In this document: positions 497 through 22,157 of the stretch, piece by piece
How the letters are laid out: each line of letters begins with the position of its first letter
How positions within the stretch are numbered: position 1 is the first letter of the stretch
Source of the DNA: Pseudomonadota bacterium
GTDB lineage: Bacteria; Desulfobacterota; JAPLJL01
Length of the DNA stretch: 64,000 bases
NCBI GenBank assembly: GCA_026388655.1
Contig: JAPLJI010000067.1
Coordinates: 1,316-65,315 of the forward strand
Reading direction: 5' to 3'
The notes under the pieces: model-generated
What the model saw: only the letters and a program-made list of their open reading frames with translations
Told to the model about the DNA's origin: nothing
The model's database searches: none
Position numbers and translations under genes: made by a program

Positions 497-602
497 TTAT
501 AGCCCCAACCCATTAATAGCTTTCTCGAGCTGATCTCTCCCGACACCAAGATACCTGACCAGCGAATGTAGGCTGCTTAGGATCTCAGCGATCGCCAGAA
601 TC
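497..602 (-). pseudogene. Tyrosine recombinase C-terminal relic (copy 1)
   Basis: Translates ILAIAEILSSLHSLVRYLGVGRDQLEKAINGLGL*, resembling the box II/catalytic-Tyr tail; homologous to 3161-3244 and 6140-6245. Confidence 0.65.
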
Positions 603-740
603 GGACATAAGATATTCAGATCACTTTTCGTTTGATTAAAAAGGGAGGAAAAATTCAGGCGGCACCCCCCACCTTCGCCAAGGCTACGGAGGACAGGCCG
701 CCGCCACCCCCCTTCACCGGAGAATCCTGTTCCTCAAAAA

Positions 741-977
741 GGCTGATTGTCAGGGACTTTAAGCTCCAGTCTGACCGATGAGGCGAAGGCGGAAGTCCGG
801 GCAATTCTAGATGAGAAAAAAATCGAGGCCTTAGTTAGGGTAGGGGTCTTTTCAGAATTTTTCCGGGAGGTGGGTAAAAAACGGATTGGTTAAAAACTCA
901 GCCGATTAGAACCTTTCCCATTTCCGCCCCCCAGGGGGGGCTAATTGGACATTTCAAGACAAACGACTAATCCCCGC
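741..977. repeat. Relic segment repeated in split form at 3317-3347 and 4680-4939
   Basis: 900-977 is nearly identical to 4862-4939 (GGGGGGGCTAATTGGACATTTCAAGACAAACGACTAAT); 741-771 matches 3317-3347. Confidence 0.85.
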
Positions 978-983
978 AAGCTC

Positions 984-1841
984 TTATTCCGTGCCCCCCG
1001 ATTTCTGCGGGAGAAGTTTCCTGGGCCGTATCTTTTTCCAGCGCTCACCCACCGGGCAGGCCCGCATGCACTCGATGCAGTGGTCAACGTCGGTGATTGC
1101 CGTTTGCCCGAACTCAACCAGGACATCGCGCCTTTTATTGTGTTTGCCTAGCATTTTCAGATAGGCGGGCCATTCCCGGAGCCGGGCGGGCTGAAGCCGG
1201 TTAAATCCGTAGGTCCAGTAAACGAAGCAGGGATCGACCTCATACCTGCCATCCTTGAGCGCACCCGACGGGCATGCCCGCTCGCATTTATCGCAACCTT
1301 TGATGCAAAGCTCGAGATCGCGCTGGGGATCGGGGGCAAGGGGCGCTTCCGTGATGATCCCGCCCAGCCTCTGATGGGGCCCGAACTCGGGCGTAAGCAG
1401 AAGATTTGAACGACCAATCTGACCCAGGCCGCAGCTGACCGCCGCGTGTTTCAGCGATAAATGCCCGAGCACGCGGGTCTGCCGGAATTTTCGGCCCGTG
1501 TCAGGATTTATTTTATATATCTCCACCGGCTTGTCGGCTGAGACCGGCAAGCCTAAAAAACCTTGCCGTTCCAGACTCCTACTGATCTCCTCGGCAACCT
1601 GGTCGAGAATTCGTGAGGTCTGCATCTTGTTCCGGGTCCAGAGCATGATGTCTGGCGAGTACACCGCTCCCAAAGAGTGAGCCACGGCCATAATGATCAC
1701 GCTCTTGGCCGAGGGCATAAGGCTGGCCGCGGGCCGGGGGGGAGAGGCAAGGATGAGTTCGCCCGCATCCGCTATCCCCACCAGATCAACTCCCCTGGAC
1801 AGGATATATTCTTTTACTCCGATTGCAGTTATTTCCATCAT
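984..1841 (-). CDS. Epoxyqueuosine reductase (QueG)/reductive-dehalogenase-like Fe-S protein
   Basis: GVDLVGIA, lmPsAKSVI, LSLKHAAVSCGLGQIGRSNLLLTPEFGP, CxxxCxxCxxxCP and CxxCxxxCP motifs. Confidence 0.8.
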   Translation of the reverse strand: MMEITAIGVKEYILSRGVDLVGIADAGELILASPPRPAASLMPSAKSVIIMAVAHSLGAVYSPDIMLWTRNKMQTSRILDQVAEEISRSLERQGFLGLPVSADKPVEIYKINPDTGRKFRQTRVLGHLSLKHAAVSCGLGQIGRSNLLLTPEFGPHQRLGGIITEAPLAPDPQRDLELCIKGCDKCERACPSGALKDGRYEVDPCFVYWTYGFNRLQPARLREWPAYLKMLGKHNKRRDVLVEFGQTAITDVDHCIECMRACPVGERWKKIRPRKLLPQKSGGTE

Positions 1842-1954
1842 AACCGGGGTCAAATCTCTAAGTTGGTGTTTGCTTCCTATAAAATGACTAATCCTCGCCT
1901 AAAACGGAACTTAAGGAACTACGTGGCCCCCAATTATAAGGGGCCAAGCTATAG

Positions 1955-2998
1955 CTATGCTTCTTCGTACAATCCCCTTGTTTTCGGATTCATGGCGGCA
2001 AGTCTCTTTTTCGCTTCCCCGGGATCGACGAATTCGAGCGACCCATCGGGATTCTGCACCACCACTCCGCCTTTTCTGATCAGGTCAGCGCGCCTCAATC
2101 GTTCTTCTTTGTCGGCTACACAGATAAGCTGGCACTGGCCGCAGGTCAGAAATACTCGGTACCCGGGGAAGAGAAAATGATGAAAACCGCCGCCGGCTTG
2201 GGGCCGCTTGAGTACCTTGGGGACCGCCTGGGCGAGAGCCGGCATAAACTCTTCATCCTTTTGCGGGATGGGCAGCCTGCCCGGACACCAAGTGGACCAC
2301 TTACCTGACTTTGAGAGGCCAGTAAAGCCGCCGCAAACATAGTCGCACCTCATGTGAGAGTTTCGTTTGGAATAGGTAAAGTCAATCCCGCCAAGTGTAA
2401 CGGTAGTTTTTTCGGATTTATCCATCATCCCCGAAGCACACATGGACAAGCACAAACGGCATTTGTCGCAATAGTTGTCCTCGGAGGGCAGCGGGTCCGT
2501 CGGCTCCAGTTCGGCTTCGGTAATCACGGAACCCAGAATGATTCCCGCGCCTTCCTTTTTCCTGATCACATTACCCGAGAGTCCAAAATGACCAACCCCG
2601 GAACGAACTGCCAAGTAGCGATGAGAGATCGGTGGTAACTCATCATAGGCGCCATGTTCTGTGTCCGTCCGATACTCGGCATTCACAGCCAGGGGAATCG
2701 ATTTATGTCCAATCCGGGTTAAAAAATTGGAAACCTCGAAGGCGATACCGCTGACCAGGATATTGGTGCGGACGTTGTCCCGGTCGTGCGCAAGCCGGTT
2801 CTCCCGCTTGAGGAAGGATAAGATCTTATCCTGGTCGAGCGGAAGCGCAAAGGAAATGGCTGACCTGGCGGTCGGCATCACGTATGTCAGGTCGGTTGAG
2901 GGAGGACCTCCAGCCAGCGTCTCGGTAGTCGAGAACCCGACGGCTATTGACCCGAGGTTTTCCAGGGCCTCCCTAATCAGTTCGTTTAAATTTTGCAT
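1955..2998 (-). CDS. QueG/reductive-dehalogenase-like Fe-S protein (second, divergent)
   Basis: vmPTARSAIS, ISHRYLAVRSGVGHFGLSGN, LGSVITEAEL, CDKCRLCLSMC, CGQCQLIC. Confidence 0.8.
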   Translation of the reverse strand: MQNLNELIREALENLGSIAVGFSTTETLAGGPPSTDLTYVMPTARSAISFALPLDQDKILSFLKRENRLAHDRDNVRTNILVSGIAFEVSNFLTRIGHKSIPLAVNAEYRTDTEHGAYDELPPISHRYLAVRSGVGHFGLSGNVIRKKEGAGIILGSVITEAELEPTDPLPSEDNYCDKCRLCLSMCASGMMDKSEKTTVTLGGIDFTYSKRNSHMRCDYVCGGFTGLSKSGKWSTWCPGRLPIPQKDEEFMPALAQAVPKVLKRPQAGGGFHHFLFPGYRVFLTCGQCQLICVADKEERLRRADLIRKGGVVVQNPDGSLEFVDPGEAKKRLAAMNPKTRGLYEEA

Positions 2999-3150
2999 TA
3001 TAATCTCCTTAAATTGATACTATGCGGCAGCCCGCGCTCTTGAGGGAATCAATTGTTTCTAATTCGCCCGATTATATCAAATAATTATTTCAAAAGGGAA
3101 TTGTAAATGATTATTCCAGTCCGATTAAAATTAAACTTTTGTCTAGATAA

Positions 3151-3178
3151 AAAAACGGGCTCAAAACTTGAGCCCGTT
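3151..3178 (-). terminator. Intrinsic terminator-like hairpin
   Basis: Minus strand AACGGGCTCAAGTTTTGAGCCCGTT followed by a T run; overlaps the stop codon of integrase relic 2. Confidence 0.6.
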
Positions 3179-3244
3179 CACCGCTTTATCAATCTGGTCC
3201 TGTCCCGTTCCTAAATACCTGACCAGTGAGTGCAGGTTCGAGTG
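3161..3244 (-). pseudogene. Tyrosine recombinase C-terminal relic (copy 2)
   Basis: Translates HSNLHSLVRYLGTGQDQIDKAVNGLKF*, with the canonical H-x8-Y spacing of integrase box II. Confidence 0.7.
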
Positions 3245-3359
3245 ATATTGTTTGATTGGGTTTAAATTAGGGAAGGAAAAAGGCTTCGCTCAGTATCAGC
3301 CCTGAGCTTGTCGAAGGGCTGATAATCCGGGACTTCAAGCTCCAATCCGCGCGCAGCCC

Positions 3360-4502
3360 TCATGCCGACAGCCCGCGGTCTCCTTCCGGCAAGCGCATCC
3401 ACCCGGGCACCGCCGGGTTGAGCAGCCACAGGAACCGCTGGTCCACGTGGGGCATGAGCCCCAGCACCGCCGGGATCAACTTCCGGGGACCCCAGGGATG
3501 CGTGGCCCACAGCAGCCGCCGCGTCAGGTAGCCGAGCTTCCACCACCGGTTCATGCGGCGGAATTCCCTGGCCGCCTTCTCCCGGTCATGGATGGCCATG
3601 GCTGCGATCCGACCGGAGACGAGGGCGCCATGCACGCCCAGGACCATGGAGGGGTCCTGCATGCCGGAGAGGGTTCCCGCCAGGATGAGATTGCCGCGAT
3701 AAAGCCGGGGGTTGGAAAAGGAGCCGGTGGGGGTGCCGACCAGGTTCTCGATCGTGTGCCAGCGGGGAAACGCCAGGCCCTCATCCTCCTGGAGCTGTTT
3801 CGGAAACCACTCCATGGCTGCGGCCGAGAGAGGCTTGCCCCGCTGAAACAGTACGGCGGCTCCGGTGCCGTTGACCGCGGCATAGTAGGCATAGTCGCGC
3901 GTGTGTTCGTGGTAATAGGCTACGCAAAACGGGCTGCGGCCCTCGGGGGCCGGGCCCCCGGCGAAAAGTCCATAGGCCCGGGTATAGGGGATGTCGAGGG
4001 CGTCGAAGGCTTCCCGGAACATGCCCGTGGCCACGATGGAGCCGGGCGGAAGATCGCTGAAGTCCTTGCGCGTGCGTACCGGCGTGCTGAAGGAAAAGCG
4101 CACCCCGCAATCCGTCGCCAGACGAAAAAGGAACGTATCGATTGACGACGGGCGAGTCCCGCGTTCGACCATCTTCATGTGGACATTGGCGGGAAGCGGG
4201 AGTTCGATGATCTTGCCGAAGGCCCGAATGCGCAGGTACGGCAAGGGATTGTAAAAAGGCACCGCCTGGGAGCTCTCCGGAGGGGAGAGGGGAAACCCCA
4301 GATACCGGTTCATGGCGTCAAGGTCCAGCGGGGTCATGTCTGCGAAGCAGAGCTCGCCCCCGCTGACGGCGGAAGCGTGGAGTGAGGCGCCGCCAATGAT
4401 GTCCTTCTGCTCCAGGACGGTGACGGCATACCCCTCGCGGGCCAGAATGATGGCCGCGGTCAGGCCCGAAAGACCGGCGCCCACGATGGTTGCCTGTTTC
4501 AT
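3360..4502 (-). CDS. NAD(P)/FAD-dependent oxidoreductase
   Basis: N-terminal IVGAGLSGLTAA...VLEQ..IGG Rossmann motif; C-terminal ILAGTLSG..GVHGALVSG. Confidence 0.85.
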   Translation of the reverse strand: MKQATIVGAGLSGLTAAIILAREGYAVTVLEQKDIIGGASLHASAVSGGELCFADMTPLDLDAMNRYLGFPLSPPESSQAVPFYNPLPYLRIRAFGKIIELPLPANVHMKMVERGTRPSSIDTFLFRLATDCGVRFSFSTPVRTRKDFSDLPPGSIVATGMFREAFDALDIPYTRAYGLFAGGPAPEGRSPFCVAYYHEHTRDYAYYAAVNGTGAAVLFQRGKPLSAAAMEWFPKQLQEDEGLAFPRWHTIENLVGTPTGSFSNPRLYRGNLILAGTLSGMQDPSMVLGVHGALVSGRIAAMAIHDREKAAREFRRMNRWWKLGYLTRRLLWATHPWGPRKLIPAVLGLMPHVDQRFLWLLNPAVPGWMRLPEGDRGLSA

Positions 4503-4679
4503 GACATCCTCCTGGTCGGGATAGGAAGTTGCTTCAAGGATAAGAAGTTACTTTGGCTGCCGTTACGTATAGCAAGGCCGGCATTGGGTGTCAACGTATT
4601 TCTGGCCGCCATTTTTTACTGGGGAAAGATCGGATTTACCAAGTTCGGTTTTATCTGGTGCAATCAGCTATACGCTCTC

Positions 4680-4939
4680 AAAGGCAAAGGCGAAAGGCCG
4701 ATCCATTTTGGCTGGGATTGAAAAGAAATCAAGGCCCTGAGCAGGGGCCTTTTTTTCCCTCGGCATCACGGGCGCAGCGAAATCCCACCCTGTCACTGGA
4801 TAGAGGGAATTGGTCAAAAGAGCTCTTTTGTCCAATAAAAAAAACGGCCGGGGATAACCTCCAGCCGATTAAAACCTTTCCCATCTTCGCTCTTAGGGGG
4901 GGCTAATTGGACATTTCAAGACAAACGACTAATTCCCGC
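4680..4939. repeat. Second copy of the relic segment at 780-977
   Basis: Near-identical 78 bp at 4862-4939; weaker similarity of 4680-4757 to 780-853. Confidence 0.8.
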
Positions 4940-5182
4940 TCTGGTAAAACTATCGAGGTTCCTGTTTTTAATTTCGTGGAAAGGGCCTGGTTCTTGATTA
5001 CGGCTCGGTGTTTGATAAGCATCATGAAAAAACAAGAAATTCAGTCCAAAGACAATCTGGAATTTGCTAAAATCTCAGGAATAGAACACCAAACGTCAAA
5101 GTAAAGACCTAGCCCCAGAAGTTTCACGATCACCGGTAGGGGAGTTCCCTTTTGGAATTCCTCGATGGGAAATCTTGGAATA

Positions 5183-5830
5183 TTAGAGCACAAACCGGAG
5201 GAAGAACTCTTTTGTTTCAGCCCATTCCGTTTCCCCGAGACGACGGGGCGCGCCGTTTTTCACCAGAGTAACGATTCCCTTACTTCTCTCGGCCTCGTCA
5301 AAAAAAACCAGCCCTTTCCGGATATGATAACCGTAATCCTCGGCCACCCCGAATTTGGTGAGAGTCCGGCTGATTAGCTCTTTCAGGTTAAGCCCCAGGG
5401 AGGTCACGATCATCCTAAGATCCACGAAGTCCTTGGCTGTCCCGCGCTGAACAATCGCGACGGTTTTCATCGCGGCGATATCTGAAGGGGAAGCCAGGGA
5501 TAGCCCGAGATTTTTGTCATCCCGAAGCGGCTCCAGGAGAGGGTAAGGGTACTTGAAGAGACTAAAACGCACTCCTTCCACCCGGGCCACCAAGGTATCC
5601 CTTTCGGATACCTGTTCGGAAACGAACGTGCACTCTTTCTTTATCGCTTCCCGGATCGGTTCGGTGAAAAATCCCTCCGGGGTAAAAAGGTCAATGTCCG
5701 TAGAAAGCCGGTGGCCGTAATACAAGGTTGCGGCGGTACCGCCGGCGAGATAGGTTCCGGAAGGCAGGGGAAAAGAAGCGGACCTCTTCAGGAGGGAGGC
5801 CACAGCCGGGGGAACGATCTCGTAAAACAT
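5183..5830 (-). CDS. Nucleotidyltransferase AbiEii/AbiGii-family toxin (type IV TA)
   Basis: YLAGGTA..YYGHRLSTDIDLF, DIAAMK, RGTAKDFVDL. Confidence 0.9.
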   Translation of the reverse strand: MFYEIVPPAVASLLKRSASFPLPSGTYLAGGTAATLYYGHRLSTDIDLFTPEGFFTEPIREAIKKECTFVSEQVSERDTLVARVEGVRFSLFKYPYPLLEPLRDDKNLGLSLASPSDIAAMKTVAIVQRGTAKDFVDLRMIVTSLGLNLKELISRTLTKFGVAEDYGYHIRKGLVFFDEAERSKGIVTLVKNGAPRRLGETEWAETKEFFLRFVL

Positions 5831-6087
5831 TGGGTTTCTTCCCTCTCCAGGCCGAGTCGCAGGCACCAATAATTAACGGTCCGGGGCGAAAGATATAAGC
5901 TTTGCTTTAAAACCTCGGTAATTTTATCCCGTTCATAGGTTTTGGAAAGAAGACCGATCTGCCGGTCTCCCCCATGCTCGAGAAGGCGCTCGACGATGAC
6001 GAACCAATCCTCCTTTAGATCGAGCGCTTTCAAATCCGCGTCCCAAAGGCAAGGTTTCAGGATTTCCTCGATTTCCGCCGGTACCAT
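5788..6087 (-). CDS. DUF6922-like cognate antitoxin
   Basis: LWD.D...LD......IVERLLEHGG motif; overlaps the start of the toxin. Confidence 0.75.
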   Translation of the reverse strand: MVPAEIEEILKPCLWDADLKALDLKEDWFVIVERLLEHGGDRQIGLLSKTYERDKITEVLKQSLYLSPRTVNYWCLRLGLEREETQCFTRSFPRLWPPS

Positions 6088-6139
6088 GAAGTTATTTTAA
6101 CACAAATACCGACGAAAAAATAGCGAAAATGACCATGCT

Positions 6140-6245
6140 ATTAGTACCATATTCCGCTTTTCCCACCTGGTCCTGGCCCGTTCCTAAATGTCTGACCAGC
6201 GAGTACAGGGGTCAATAAAACCGGTCCGGCCCGATCGCCAAAATC
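6140..6245 (-). pseudogene. Tyrosine recombinase C-terminal relic (copy 3)
   Basis: ILAIGPDRFY*PLYSLVRHLGTGQDQVGKAE; colinear with copies 1 and 2; internal stop and Tyr to His change. Confidence 0.6.
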
Positions 6246-6360
6246 CAAATCTCAAAAATTCAAATCAAATTATTTTATTAATAGATAAGGCGAGATTCTT
6301 CGCTTCCCTTGGCTACGCTCGGGATAAACCGCTCAGAATGACAAATTTAAGTAGGAATAA

Positions 6361-6435
6361 TGGAGGCGGCACCCGGATTCGAACCGGGGAATGAAGGTTT
6401 TGCAGACCTTTGCCTTACCACTTGGCGATGCCGCC
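6361..6435 (-). tRNA. tRNA-Cys(GCA)
   Basis: GGCGGCATCGCCAAGTGGTAAGGCAAAGGTCTGCAAAACCTT...GGTTCGAATCCGGGTGCCGCCTCCA. Confidence 0.97.
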
Positions 6436-6439
6436 GTAA

Positions 6440-6514
6440 TGGAGCGGGCAATGGGAATTGAACCCACGACCTCAACCTTGGCAAGGTTGCACTCTACCGC
6501 TGAGTTACGCCCGC
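6440..6514 (-). tRNA. tRNA-Gly(GCC)
   Basis: GCGGGCGTAACTCAGCGGTAGAGTGCAACCTTGCCAAGGTTG...GGTTCAATTCCCATTGCCCGCTCCA. Confidence 0.97.
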
Positions 6515-6775
6515 ATTTGGCTTGCTCTTAGAAGATAGAAAAAATCCTCCGAACTGTCAATCGAGAGAACCCCGGACATAAGATTTGGCAGGCGCGCCCT
6601 TCCGGGTGCGGGTATTTTTTTAATGATCTTCCCCCTCAACCCTTCCTTCTCCCCGGTGGGGAGAAGGTGAGGATGAGGGGGAATTTTTTCGCAGGCTAAA
6701 GCCTGCGGCTACCTAATCCATAAAATATATTTTCTCAACATCGTCAATCTCGACCGGTTCCGGCAGGTGCCTTTC

Positions 6776-19874: not shown

Positions 19875-22157
19875 TTAAAACTTCCAGTCGCTTTCTTCTT
19901 TTTTCTCGTCTTCGGGGGCTTCGGCCTTTTCCTTTTCTTTTTCCTTGGCCACCCGGTGGAAGGGGATGACGCGGTTGCGGCCTTTCTGCTTGGCGGTGTA
20001 AAGGGCGAGGTCGGCCTTCTGGAGGAGCTCGTCCGGCTCCTGGGCGTCCTCCGGGCAACTCGCCACCCCCAGGGAAATGGTAACCCCGATCTTGCTTCCC
20101 CCCTCGATCGGGAAGGAACTCGACTCCACCAGCCGGCGGATGCGCTCGGCCAGCTTCATCGCCCCCTCGGAGTCGGTGTTGGGCAGGAGGAGAGTGAACT
20201 CCTCCCCACCGTAGCGGGCGACCAGGTCCATCTCGCGGGCCGCCCCCTTCAGGATGCGGGATAAACCCCGGAGGACCGCGTCGCCGGCCGGGTGGCCATA
20301 GCGGTCGTTCACCTTTTTGAAGAAGTCCAGGTCGATCAGGATCAGGGAGATCGGCTCCGGGTGCCGCACCGATCGGATGAATTCCTCCCGGATCCGTTCC
20401 TGGAAACGCCGGTGGTTGGAGAGACCGGTGATCGGGTCGGTGACCGCCTCGGCCTCCTTCTCGTGGAAGAGCCGGGCTTTTTCCAGGGAGATGGCGATCT
20501 GGTTGGCCAAGACGTCGAAGATCTTGACCTCGTACTCGGAAAATAAATTCGCCGCCTTGCCCAATAAGGTAAAGGACCCGATCACCCTGCCTTCCACGGA
20601 GAAGGGAATGGTCAGGATGGATCGGGCCCCCCGGATCTTGATTTCCTTGGAGAAGATGGGGCGCTCCTGGTCGCGCTCGTGCAGGTTCCCCTTGCAGAAG
20701 ATTTTTCGGTAGGAGTCCAGGACCCAGCCGACCAGGCCATCCTCGATTCCGAAGCTTTTCTGGAGGGTGGACTCGGCCCCCTCGCCCCGGGCGGCCTGGA
20801 TCACGCTTCTCCCGGTGGACTCGTCGAAGGTGGCGATGGCGGCGAAGTCGTAAGGAACGATCTCGAGGATGGAATCGAGGCCCAGGTTTAAAACCTCCTC
20901 CATGCGGAGGGCGGCGGAGAGCCTTTTCGAGATTTCGTAGAAGGCGGCGAACTCGGTGGCCTCGATCGACATCTGGTGGCGGATCTCGGCGTTTTCAATC
21001 GTGTCCACGATCTGGGAGGCCACCACCTCGAGGAGCTTGCGCTGTTCGTCGGTGAAGGCGGAGATGTCGCGGGAATCGATGGCGAGGACGCCGATGATCT
21101 CGGGGGCGGATTCCGCCGGGGCATGGCTCAAGCGGGGAGTATTTTCCGGGTCCCCCGAGCTCGGGGCGCGCCGGGAGGAGGGGAAAACCCCCGGGTTAAT
21201 CGGGACGGCCAGGAAGGAATGGATGCCCTCCTCCCGCGAGTAATAATTGATCCCCTTCAGGGGGTTGGCCAGCTCGTGCAGCTGGATGGGGGAATGGTTC
21301 TGGTAAACCCAGCCGATCACCCCCTCGCCGGAGCGGAAGGTTTTCTCGAAATTCAGGTAATCGCTGTCGGAGATGCCGTCCTTGAGCCGGAGCCGATTGC
21401 CGTCGGGCTCCCAGAAATAAATCAGGACCGAGAAGGGATGGATGGTTCGCTTCAGGATTTCCAGGACCCGGTAGATCCGGTCACCCAGGTCGAAGGCCTG
21501 GGCGATTTCCCGCTTTTCCCGGGATTCCTTGGAGATCTTCTCGAGCTTAAAGGTGCTGTGCTCCCCGCGGTCGGCGGCGTGCCCCGCCCCCGCTTCGCCC
21601 AGGGAACGGGCGTCGCGGTTGATATCAGCCAGGCGGGACTTGGCCTTGTTCCGCCACTTGCGTTCGGATTTGAAGGCGCCCCCGAAAACCAGGACGAAGA
21701 CGAGCGCGAAGAAAGCGTGGGAGCCCAGGGTTTCCGCCTGGCTCCAGAATTCGAACTTGATCAATTGGTGGGCGGTTTCCAGGGAGAGCGCGAAGAGCAT
21801 AATCAGGAGGGCGTGAAGGATTGGAAAATAGAGGGCGAGCATGGTGAGGATGAAGTACTTGAGGGGGTAAAGCAGGGGCCCGATCTCCCCGGTGGCCTGG
21901 AGCGGGATCTCGAAGGTGAGGATGAGGAGAAAGCCGAACTCGAGGTTGTCCCGGAGGGAAGGTTTTTCCACCCGGAGGTAGGAAAACAGTTTTTCCCCGG
22001 TCAGGGCGACCAGGACGACGACCAGGACGATGGGGGAGGCGGAAAGATCCCGGAGCCGGGAAAAGTAATCAAAGATGACGAAGAGGGAGAAAAACGGAAT
22101 CGCGGAAGGATAGAGGAAGCGCTGGACTTTTTGCTCCCAGAAGCCTCCCTTGGTCAT
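19875..22157 (-). CDS. Membrane diguanylate cyclase (TM-GAF-GAF-GGDEF)
   Basis: DLDFFKKVNDRYGH, RxxD I-site (REMD), ARYGGEEF; two GAF domains. Confidence 0.93.
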   Translation of the reverse strand: MTKGGFWEQKVQRFLYPSAIPFFSLFVIFDYFSRLRDLSASPIVLVVVLVALTGEKLFSYLRVEKPSLRDNLEFGFLLILTFEIPLQATGEIGPLLYPLKYFILTMLALYFPILHALLIMLFALSLETAHQLIKFEFWSQAETLGSHAFFALVFVLVFGGAFKSERKWRNKAKSRLADINRDARSLGEAGAGHAADRGEHSTFKLEKISKESREKREIAQAFDLGDRIYRVLEILKRTIHPFSVLIYFWEPDGNRLRLKDGISDSDYLNFEKTFRSGEGVIGWVYQNHSPIQLHELANPLKGINYYSREEGIHSFLAVPINPGVFPSSRRAPSSGDPENTPRLSHAPAESAPEIIGVLAIDSRDISAFTDEQRKLLEVVASQIVDTIENAEIRHQMSIEATEFAAFYEISKRLSAALRMEEVLNLGLDSILEIVPYDFAAIATFDESTGRSVIQAARGEGAESTLQKSFGIEDGLVGWVLDSYRKIFCKGNLHERDQERPIFSKEIKIRGARSILTIPFSVEGRVIGSFTLLGKAANLFSEYEVKIFDVLANQIAISLEKARLFHEKEAEAVTDPITGLSNHRRFQERIREEFIRSVRHPEPISLILIDLDFFKKVNDRYGHPAGDAVLRGLSRILKGAAREMDLVARYGGEEFTLLLPNTDSEGAMKLAERIRRLVESSSFPIEGGSKIGVTISLGVASCPEDAQEPDELLQKADLALYTAKQKGRNRVIPFHRVAKEKEKEKAEAPEDEKKEESDWKF

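Follow-up and report, generated by a model that had tools for sequence, protein, structure and literature searches.

Sedentary chromosomal integrons hold, at one locus, a long row of small and mostly co-oriented units that are separated by recombination-site-like repeats, include toxin-antitoxin units and vary in content between close relatives, and their attC hairpins measure 60-140 bp. Described tandem accretions of integrative elements usually comprise two or three large elements. The locus considered here is a tRNA-Cys gene together with the row of repeat-separated gene units at its 3' end, found in a 64,000-nucleotide stretch of DNA (the window; G000:C189:1316-65315) from an uncultured sediment bacterium (G000; assembly of 3.56 Mb, 94% complete). 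This array is probably a decayed tandem accretion, at tRNA-Cys, of integrase-less elements that resemble cis-mobilizable elements (CIMEs). CIMEs and the tandem accretion of integrative elements at target genes have been reviewed, for example for the ICESt1/ICESt3-related elements of Streptococcus thermophilus (PMC5704250). The likeness to this locus lies in the loss of integration genes with retention of the attachment (att) sites, the tandem arrangement at the 3' end of a target gene, the integration of newcomers beside decayed elements and the direct repeats of the target end within composites. Here, the units are bounded by repeats of the tRNA 3' end (except at one junction, called junction 2 below), and integration genes have been lost while att-like sites were kept. 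Unlike CIME tandems, the array has many gene- to operon-sized units, all with the same deletion scar in the integrase gene (int), its parent integrase would be a 193-aa protein made of the catalytic domain only, and no conjugation genes were seen. The literature, searched under CIME and accretion terms only, yielded no description of such arrays, which is not a claim that none exists.

There is also a likeness to sedentary chromosomal integrons, since this is a single locus with small repeat-separated units, toxin-antitoxin genes and a cargo that differs almost completely between close relatives. Unlike integrons, it has no IntI gene, attI or Pc, and its head is a tRNA gene; its junctions are 300-500 bp long and centred (by eye) on a copy of the tRNA 3' end, the units bring their own promoter-like and terminator-like parts, and the parent recombinase matches integron-integrase models only weakly. 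For the comparison, two congeners of G000 were used (G001 and G002, the latter its sister species), together with the metagenome contigs L064, L066 (which overlaps L064) and L067, and the contigs of four freshwater-sediment sequencing runs (X1-X4). tRNA genes were called by ARAGORN, repeats were found by a repeat search of the window, and cargo was assigned by Pfam, NCBIfam and PADLOC.

The repeat search returned three co-oriented 56-nt copies of a sequence called relic A, at 517-572 (66% identity), 3181-3236 (the reference) and 6154-6209 (84%), and within G000 this relic is confined to contig C189. Repeat search and translation thus bear out the three minus-strand relics of an earlier first-pass annotation of this DNA, as well as the translations given for them. 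The annotation had read them as the tail of a tyrosine recombinase, a claim that direct searches left without an answer: the relic peptides alone had no match in Pfam at E<=0.1 nor at E<=10 and no integrase among six PDB matches at E<=10, and no relative of the relic was found among longer proteins sharing words with P0001. These searches failed because the query is short, and a longer profile together with the protein P0009 resolved the identity. The profile, a hidden Markov model of five A peptides (the fifth, a longer copy retaining ...PILTIAEILDHSGLDAPVRYLGTGQDQ..., was supplied by L067), was aligned by hhalign to 11 integrase C-termini of G000 and G002, which placed the box II His and the Arg-Tyr in register (P 4.4e-4); none of 300 column-shuffled controls reached its score of 26.6 (mean 8.6, standard deviation 1.9, maximum 15.9). 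Against 1.84 billion representative proteins, the profile gave six matches at E<=0.001. One of them, P0005 (55 aa, E 6.2e-8), reads ...HSMRKTAGTQMMRNGTPIPVIAEILDHNDLHSLVRY... and matches PF00589 at E 1.9e-8 over profile positions 129-168 of 172. The others (P0003, P0004 and P0006-P0008) match by 3-12 short partial stretches each; of these, P0007 and P0008 were examined by sequence, and they are repetitive proteins rather than relatives.

P0009 is a complete 193-aa PF00589 protein from a metagenome, 87% identical to P0005. Searched by tblastn against the whole genome, it matches relic A1 (497-607, minus strand; the last ~37 codons and the stop, P0009 residues 156/157-191) at E 1.4e-7 with 64% identity over 36 aa (66% over 35 aa in a small database) and relic A2 (3161-3244, minus strand; the last 27 codons and the stop, 24/27 identical to P0009 residues 167-193) at E 3.2e-10 with 89% identity. 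Relic A3 (6140-6245, minus strand) has ~21 recognisable codons, an upstream in-frame stop and a decayed tail, and shares 84% nucleotide identity with A2 and 71% over 21 aa with P0009. From the matches of P0009 to A1 and A2 and the similarity of A3, the relics are identified as dead C-termini of a small tyrosine recombinase, in agreement with the first-pass reading. A2 retains the box II His and the Arg-Tyr, a 2-codon deletion takes the box II His out of A1, and His stands in place of the nucleophile Tyr in A3 as well as in the G001 copy. All A relics are 21-37 codons long, without a start codon and with stops upstream, and none is an open gene for a catalytic domain. A possible fourth and older int fragment lies at 5113-5154 (minus strand; QKGTPLPVIVKLLG vs P0009 residues 153-166), although its match is not significant (tblastn E 1.1, small database). 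With a 25-position A profile, nothing convincing was found outside the genus among 401 genomes of the phylum (best outside match, E 0.004); a search of genome contigs gave one true match, L048, which has the same relic as G001, while L049 was a chance match within a repeat protein. Viral contigs had no match to the A profile and 0 to the pattern of the B-start described below. A hairpin in relic A shows G-C, G-U and A-U variants, and with only 4 sequences it was treated as incidental.

The family of P0009 is sparsely populated, with 17 clusters at E<=1e-10, P0009 included, that are mostly 183-219 aa long (P0009-P0025; four are exactly 193 aa, and two shorter forms, of 175 and 102 aa, are on record) and that have no N-terminal DNA-binding domain. 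These proteins cover only the catalytic half of XerC/XerD models and the full length of FimB/FimE-type invertase models (P0009 aligned over 5-178 of 198 and 10-177 of 200 in the FimE and FimB-type models), although they fall below all curated NCBIfam cut-offs, and P0009 scores 42 bits against the integron-integrase model, whose cut-off is 265. In size and in this end-to-end alignment P0009 resembles FimB/FimE invertases and the plasmid-borne 'site-specific integrase' proteins of ~185-190 aa; distant relatives, at <=38% identity, were found on 934 plasmid records, with many Enterococcus, Bacillus and cyanobacterial plasmids among them. Unlike the genes of FimB/FimE-type invertases, the relics stand in direct-repeat junctions at a tRNA gene, which therefore points to integration rather than to inversion or multimer resolution. 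Integrases of the SSV1 type have attP inside the int gene, so that integration splits it, and the present locus is similar in that a short C-terminal int fragment adjoins a tRNA-derived core. A split gene was rejected, because P0009 found no match in any B block (tblastn, E<=5) and the N-terminal 150 residues are not seen across the core; the fragment would therefore stem from a deletion. The first-pass annotation had proposed a search for an intact integrase, which came out differently in the genomes and in the metagenome: G000, G001 and G002 have no close relative of P0009, a search of 401 genomes of the phylum (E<=1e-22) found none either, and P0009 itself is the intact relative. No PF00589 gene lies on C168, C189, G002:C13/C34, G001:C256/C40 or L064-L067. 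The four tyrosine recombinases (PF00589) of G000, on C176, C56 and C117, are off the array and have tails unlike the relics; two of the full-length tyrosine recombinase genes on record for this genome are adjacent (G000:C117:7267-9431; 378 and 336 aa), are unrelated to the relics and may mark another mobile element.

On the plus strand, a full junction reads int tail (itself on the minus strand), spacer, tRNA-Cys 3' end, often a repetitive extragenic palindromic (REP) sequence, start of a block termed B (B-start), hairpin terminator and end of the block (B-end). To judge from its parts, this order is the layout of an attP site, and at the tRNA itself the tRNA body stands where B would be. The tRNA-Cys(GCA) gene occupies 6361-6435 (minus strand; ARAGORN, Rfam tRNA 65.4 bits), and its 3' end, 6361-6374, is the core that is repeated at the junctions. 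A core copy lies at 655-667 (plus strand), and it includes the 11-bp copy that had been reported at 657-667, which is identical to 6364-6374. This 11-mer, AGGCGGCACCC, occurs only 4 times in the 3.56 Mb genome, 3 of them in the context of the array (the tRNA, window 657 and C168:28273), and the 15-mer ATGGAGGCGGC[AG]CCC occurs 3 times, at the tRNA and at two B-starts on contig C168; the recurrence of the core is beyond chance. The copies at window 655-667, C168:21423 and C168:28270 are all co-oriented with the tRNA. A scan allowing 2 mismatches gave 171 matches and was uninformative. Together with the next G+C run, core 655-667 forms a hairpin that was scored as terminator-like on the strand of the cargo (674-657, minus strand).

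Between core and int relic stands a spacer. Type 2 (608-654) recurs after the core in G001:C40, G002:C34, L064/L066 and L067, and type 1 (6246-6360, between A3 and the tRNA) is the same spacer with a REP-like insertion, 90% identical over 102 nt to an internal junction of G001:C256. That syntenic G001 junction holds all junction parts, type 1 spacer included; in G000 the type 1 spacer adjoins the tRNA. The G002 tRNA-Cys is followed by a type 2 spacer and an A2-type terminator hairpin, without int codons, and the junction family is anchored at tRNA-Cys in both sister species. The hairpin in question is a strong intrinsic terminator of the window (3153-3179, minus strand; a 12-pair stem and a T run). 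It overlaps the last A2 codons, and its counterpart on G002:C13, which adjoins the tRNA-Cys there on the downstream side, is 86% identical over 50 nt. Across the core, block B1 (701-977, plus strand) consists of a B-start (701-790; nhmmer E 4.5e-24), a degenerate hairpin at ~823-850 and a B-end (900-977), and block B2b (4680-4939, plus strand) of a bidirectional terminator hairpin (4731-4751) and a B-end (4862-4939). Paired segments of the two blocks are 82% (738-771 vs 3314-3347), 72% (876-939 vs 4839-4902) and 98% identical (933-977 vs 4895-4939, 44/45). The first-pass annotation had called block B a second relic with a nearly invariant 78-bp end; the repeat is real, although the identity is 89.7% over 78 nt and near-invariance is limited to the last 45 nt. 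Junction 2 (3245-3347, plus strand) has a spacer-2-like part (3245-3289), a REP (~3290-3313) at the position of the core, which is missing, and a B-start fragment (3314-3347), and it is also present, together with the adjacent FAD oxidoreductase gene, in G001:C40. A partial extra B-end lies between two QueG-like genes (1881-1915, plus strand) and resembles, by eye, a copy on contig C23.

The insertions at 668-700 (between core and block B1, with GTAG) and ~3290-3313 are of a REP type found genome-wide; the first, whose GTAG is read on the other strand, has ~20 more matches spread over 18 other contigs and another one on C189. REP-type repeats, some with GTAG, were observed at 668-700, 3290-3313 and 6290-6345 and in junctions of G001, G002 and the metagenome, as repeated insertions at a single position, in the hairpin that the tRNA-derived core makes with the first part of block B, with a REP that differs between copies. 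Several B-starts also share a ~75-nt internal insertion that contains a spacer-like piece and a REP and is flanked by duplicated GCTGATA (C168:21448-21590, L015:1329-1497, L016:1279-1440 and L066:5060-5250).

Block B does not bear out its description as the relic of a gene. Its ORFs have no match in Pfam, and the seven copies of the B-start, which align without indels, carry no coding signal (8, 12 and 13 variable columns by codon position over 22 codons); 101-aa ORFs over the B-start in G002 consist of REPs. Block B is read as the non-coding far arm of the element. The same features bear on the view that the repeats are kept for a present function other than mobility, as a terminator, structured-RNA and promoter module that insulates the cassettes, which is very improbable. 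The junctions do hold a bidirectional terminator and a terminator-like core hairpin, the indel-free B-start has a potential three-stem fold, the relic A hairpin has its pair variants, and the three sigma-70-like sites that score best in a 7.1 kb stretch of G002 (10/12 matches each) are all located in junctions, each shortly before the next gene. However, a double change was found in 1/27 predicted B-start pairs only, for which the structured RNA was rejected, and neither A nor B has a match in Rfam at E<=1 (only the two tRNAs do). Divergence is also at or above the neutral rate, and in G002 the -35 box, TTGACC, of the promoter-like junction sites (TTGACC-N16-TAnAAT type) is supplied by decayed int codons, so that promoter function is secondary at best.

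In the direction of the cargo, conservation after the core runs to ...GAATTTCTTATGYCYGGATTCTGGCGATCG, and there int homology (PILAI..., P0009 residue ~157) starts. This breakpoint motif, ...CTTATGYCYGGATTCTGGCGATCG, is shared by at least 9 junctions. The window, G001 and G002:C34 contribute a pair each, and L064, L066 and L067 a single one each; the L066 junction is that of L064 on the overlapping contig and is counted within the nine. The relics extend for 37 codons in A1 and L067, 27 in A2, ~21 in A3 and ~12 in most G002 junctions, differences that are due to later decay. The first-pass annotation had envisaged a deletion to the same remnants three times, which does not hold with one breakpoint in all these junctions and with relics of different length. 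Because the same breakpoint recurs in several genomes, one copied deletion is simpler than three independent ones, and the simplest account would be that about 150 codons were lost once from the start of an ancestral int and that the junction was then copied.

The array extends to the left of the window, as had been foreseen, since C168 ends with the same 141 nt that open C189, and synteny with G001:C256 runs through the join. B-start matches of nhmmer (E<0.01) number 6 at 5 places, one being split by an insertion, and all lie on one strand of C168/C189; given the overlap, all B-starts and cores therefore fall in one ~27 kb stretch that ends at tRNA-Cys, within which a further B-end copy lies at C168:10303. 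In G002, the end of C13 and the start of C34 share 127 identical nt, and the 35 kb that follow its tRNA-Cys accordingly include four cores (on C34), one degenerate core and three B-starts. At least 5 junctions were thus counted in 27 kb of G000 and at least 8 in 35 kb of G002, in an array of at least 35 kb at the same tRNA-Cys whose cargo is almost wholly different. The comparison of the tRNA-Cys locus among relatives that had been proposed gave the expected result, different cargo between the same repeats in G001 and G002. Besides junctions and right flank, a single acyl-CoA dehydrogenase (85%) is common to the G000 and G002 arrays, and its flanks are not shared. G000 and G001 differ at only 5-24% of third codon positions, yet gene order differs at the junctions: the second QueG-like gene is followed by a DUF362 gene in G001 and by junction 2 and the oxidoreductase in G000, the G001 oxidoreductase has another left neighbour, and G001:C256 (L015:6246-7397) has an extra PETase-like alpha/beta hydrolase gene between the flavodoxin and ferredoxin-nitroreductase genes, where G000 has only ~340 nt of REP-rich DNA. 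Junctions of the same family separate a pilus operon, toxin-antitoxin genes and a kinase in L064 and L066. On L064, a span of 10.4 kb includes 4 core copies, and the two near-identical contigs differ by a toxin-like NTP_transf_8 nucleotidyltransferase that is present in the L064 unit and absent from L066 (L064:5727-6404 vs L066:10344-10960).

Part of this variation could be explained without site-specific integration, if the tRNA-Cys flank and an old int pseudogene had been duplicated by unequal crossing-over and genes had later been inserted or exchanged by homologous recombination after DNA uptake. The G001 junction is a hybrid of an A1 tail and A3-type upstream sequence, which speaks for recombination between junction copies, an insertion of ~1.3 kb (the FAD oxidoreductase gene and its upstream region) lies inside block B without a core, and the shared acyl-CoA dehydrogenase has no flanks in common. 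Even so, such an origin of the array is quite unlikely, because in most junctions the copy of the tRNA 3' end lies exactly at the boundary of two conserved arms and the core is also found on C168 with no int-side arm and on L064 with different arms, a pattern that argues for crossover within the core and not for segmental duplication.

Whether the junctions are still in use was judged from their conservation. In the orthologous G001 junction, relic A is 87% and B 67% identical (76-79% for pieces of the block), compared with 76-95% third-codon identity in neighbouring genes; one core, that of junction 2, is lost, REPs occupy the core-B boundary in most copies, and paralogous junctions within G000 are only 66-90% alike. 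Divergence at the neutral rate or faster, the lost core, the REPs and this degree of paralogy argue against selected sites and against recent bursts, and the earlier suggestion that the remnants are retained sites loses its ground, the G001 junction being no better conserved than synonymous sites. Contigs of the four sediment runs cover the reference in tiles that end at the junction repeats; stretches of the window that lack contig cover in X4 carry no information. One join, in register, leads from A3 to spacer 2 (6246 to 607; depth 7 of ~15-20 in X1 and 21 in X3), with 4 other letters between, 2/4 of which differ from the exact recombinant; it shows that alternative arrangements exist at the junctions, and as run contigs cannot separate circles from strain variants, it is indistinguishable from a strain variant or a tandem duplication. 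The four other joins (516 to 5127 in X2, with a side of 30; 733 to 3269 in X3; 3185 back to 578 in X3, at depth 3.4; and 3317 to 6698 in X3, with a side of 21) are too short-sided or out of register, and probably represent paralogous junctions or other strains.

These data also bear on the more dynamic view of the first-pass annotation, in which the locus would be a working gene-capture platform whose unit is a promoter, a gene or operon, a terminator and an attP with a dead int tail. Such a unit would be excised and put back at tRNA-Cys by a helper recombinase of 193 aa that an autonomous relative in the population provides in trans. A single deletion scar beside many different cargoes in several genomes would fit this view, as would the near-complete turnover of cargo between sister species whose flank is 84% identical, the existence of an intact recombinase relative with a tail 89% identical to A2, the frequency of toxin-antitoxin cargo, as in other cassette arrays, and the 6246-to-607 join. 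We nevertheless regard it as unlikely: a helper gene is missing from G000, G001 and G002 and, at E<=1e-22, from the 401 genomes of the phylum, the junctions diverge no more slowly than neutral sequence, with one core missing and REPs disrupting the core-B boundary, junctions within the genome are too dissimilar for a recent burst, and the join departs from the exact recombinant and possibly comes from another strain. Correspondingly doubtful is the reading of the tRNA-Cys locus as an integron-like cassette platform of a different build, with cassettes that would each carry their own promoter, a terminator and ~400 bp of attP and dead int stub, and whose insertion and removal at the tRNA 3' end by the 193-aa recombinase would give the near-complete turnover of cargo. 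Trans-mobilisation of the units, as a process, is no more than a possibility.

In the preferred account, the decayed accretion of CIME-like elements, the window would contain the tRNA-proximal 6 kb of a composite island of ~27 kb, which would have arisen as elements integrated site-specifically, one after another, at the 3' end of tRNA-Cys. The integrating elements would belong to one family, with an integrase of ~193 aa, limited to the catalytic domain and encoded directly beside the attachment site, and the ancestral int gene would start near the core and read away from the tRNA, which is the orientation of P4-type islands. Serial integration predicts an attP at each internal junction of a tandem array, that is an int-side arm (spacer and int), a core and a B-side arm, and this is why arm-core-arm junctions would be seen; the serial integration of related elements that had been proposed earlier agrees with att-like junctions anchored at the tRNA-Cys 3' end. 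The int-side arm would descend here from one ancestor with about the first 150 int codons deleted, and its units would for that reason be integrase-less and CIME-like. The present array would be a decaying fossil, with no cognate integrase, one core lost and REPs in its junctions, in which parts of the dead int have probably been recruited as promoter -35 boxes, and its cargo, which has turned over heavily between sister species, would have done so via a helper integrase in trans or by homologous recombination between the repeated junctions.

Several observations weigh against this account. No intact element was seen, and P0009 is only a candidate for a recombinase encoded beside, or acting on, a tRNA-Cys core. 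Junction identity between G000 and G002 (74-85%) is no higher than backbone identity (84%), so the junctions could be old and vertically inherited, and the cargo differences could owe much to loss. The C168 junctions at 21423 and 28270 have core and B without a spacer or int relic at their left, the distal genes of the G000 array are in both orientations, a B-end copy lies on C23, a contig without assigned genome position, and the L066 array follows aspS-gatA-gatB, with no tRNA visible there.

The cargo of the window units, all on the minus strand, was assigned by Pfam and NCBIfam in agreement with the first-pass calls (flavodoxin, FAD oxidoreductase, two QueG-like enzymes and toxin-antitoxin). 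To the left of junction 1 lies, as cargo or flank, a flavodoxin gene (2-316, truncated by the window start; 160 aa in full, PF00258 E 1e-5) that is 97.5% identical in amino acids to its G001 orthologue. A pair of 18-nt direct repeats (TTTTACATTTTGCGATTA-like) at 441-493, between A1 and this gene, is also present in conserved form in G001 and may serve as the promoter or operator of the gene. The next unit encodes two Fe-S proteins, QueG/reductive-dehalogenase-like protein 1 (984-1853; Pfam Fer4 families, TIGR00276 42.6 bits with a cut-off of 200) and QueG-like protein 2 (1955-2998; Pfam, NCBIfam), both of which score far under the family cut-offs. An FAD/NAD(P)-binding oxidoreductase (3360-4502; Pfam NAD_binding_8 and DAO), 91% identical in amino acids to that of G001:C40, is located inside block B2. 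This gene and ~180 nt of upstream DNA are placed between B-start and terminator (window 3348-4680; L016:2385-3603), with an insertion junction that is identical in G000 and G001 and that no repeat marks. The unit next to the tRNA holds an AbiEii-type nucleotidyltransferase toxin (5183-5869; PF08843 E 6e-17, PADLOC AbiEii) and its DUF6922 partner (5788-6087; PF21956 E 2e-12). Beyond tRNA-Cys, ARAGORN called a tRNA-Gly gene (6440-6514, minus strand), and just upstream of this tRNA pair a 26-nt inverted repeat (6616-6692; 85% complementary, 3-nt loop) yields spurious microRNA matches in Rfam.

In two sister species, gene- to operon-sized units thus form arrays of 27 kb and at least 35 kb next to one tRNA gene, and the small recombinase family to which the relics point is uncharacterised, with 17 clusters of which none attains a curated cut-off. 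Should a helper still move the units, they would represent a second route to integron-like cassette arrays, with a tRNA as target and a minimal tyrosine recombinase of 193 aa. If the units are immobile, the array would be a natural record of elements turning non-autonomous, with a dead int gene reused as promoter parts and repeated junctions driving rearrangement.

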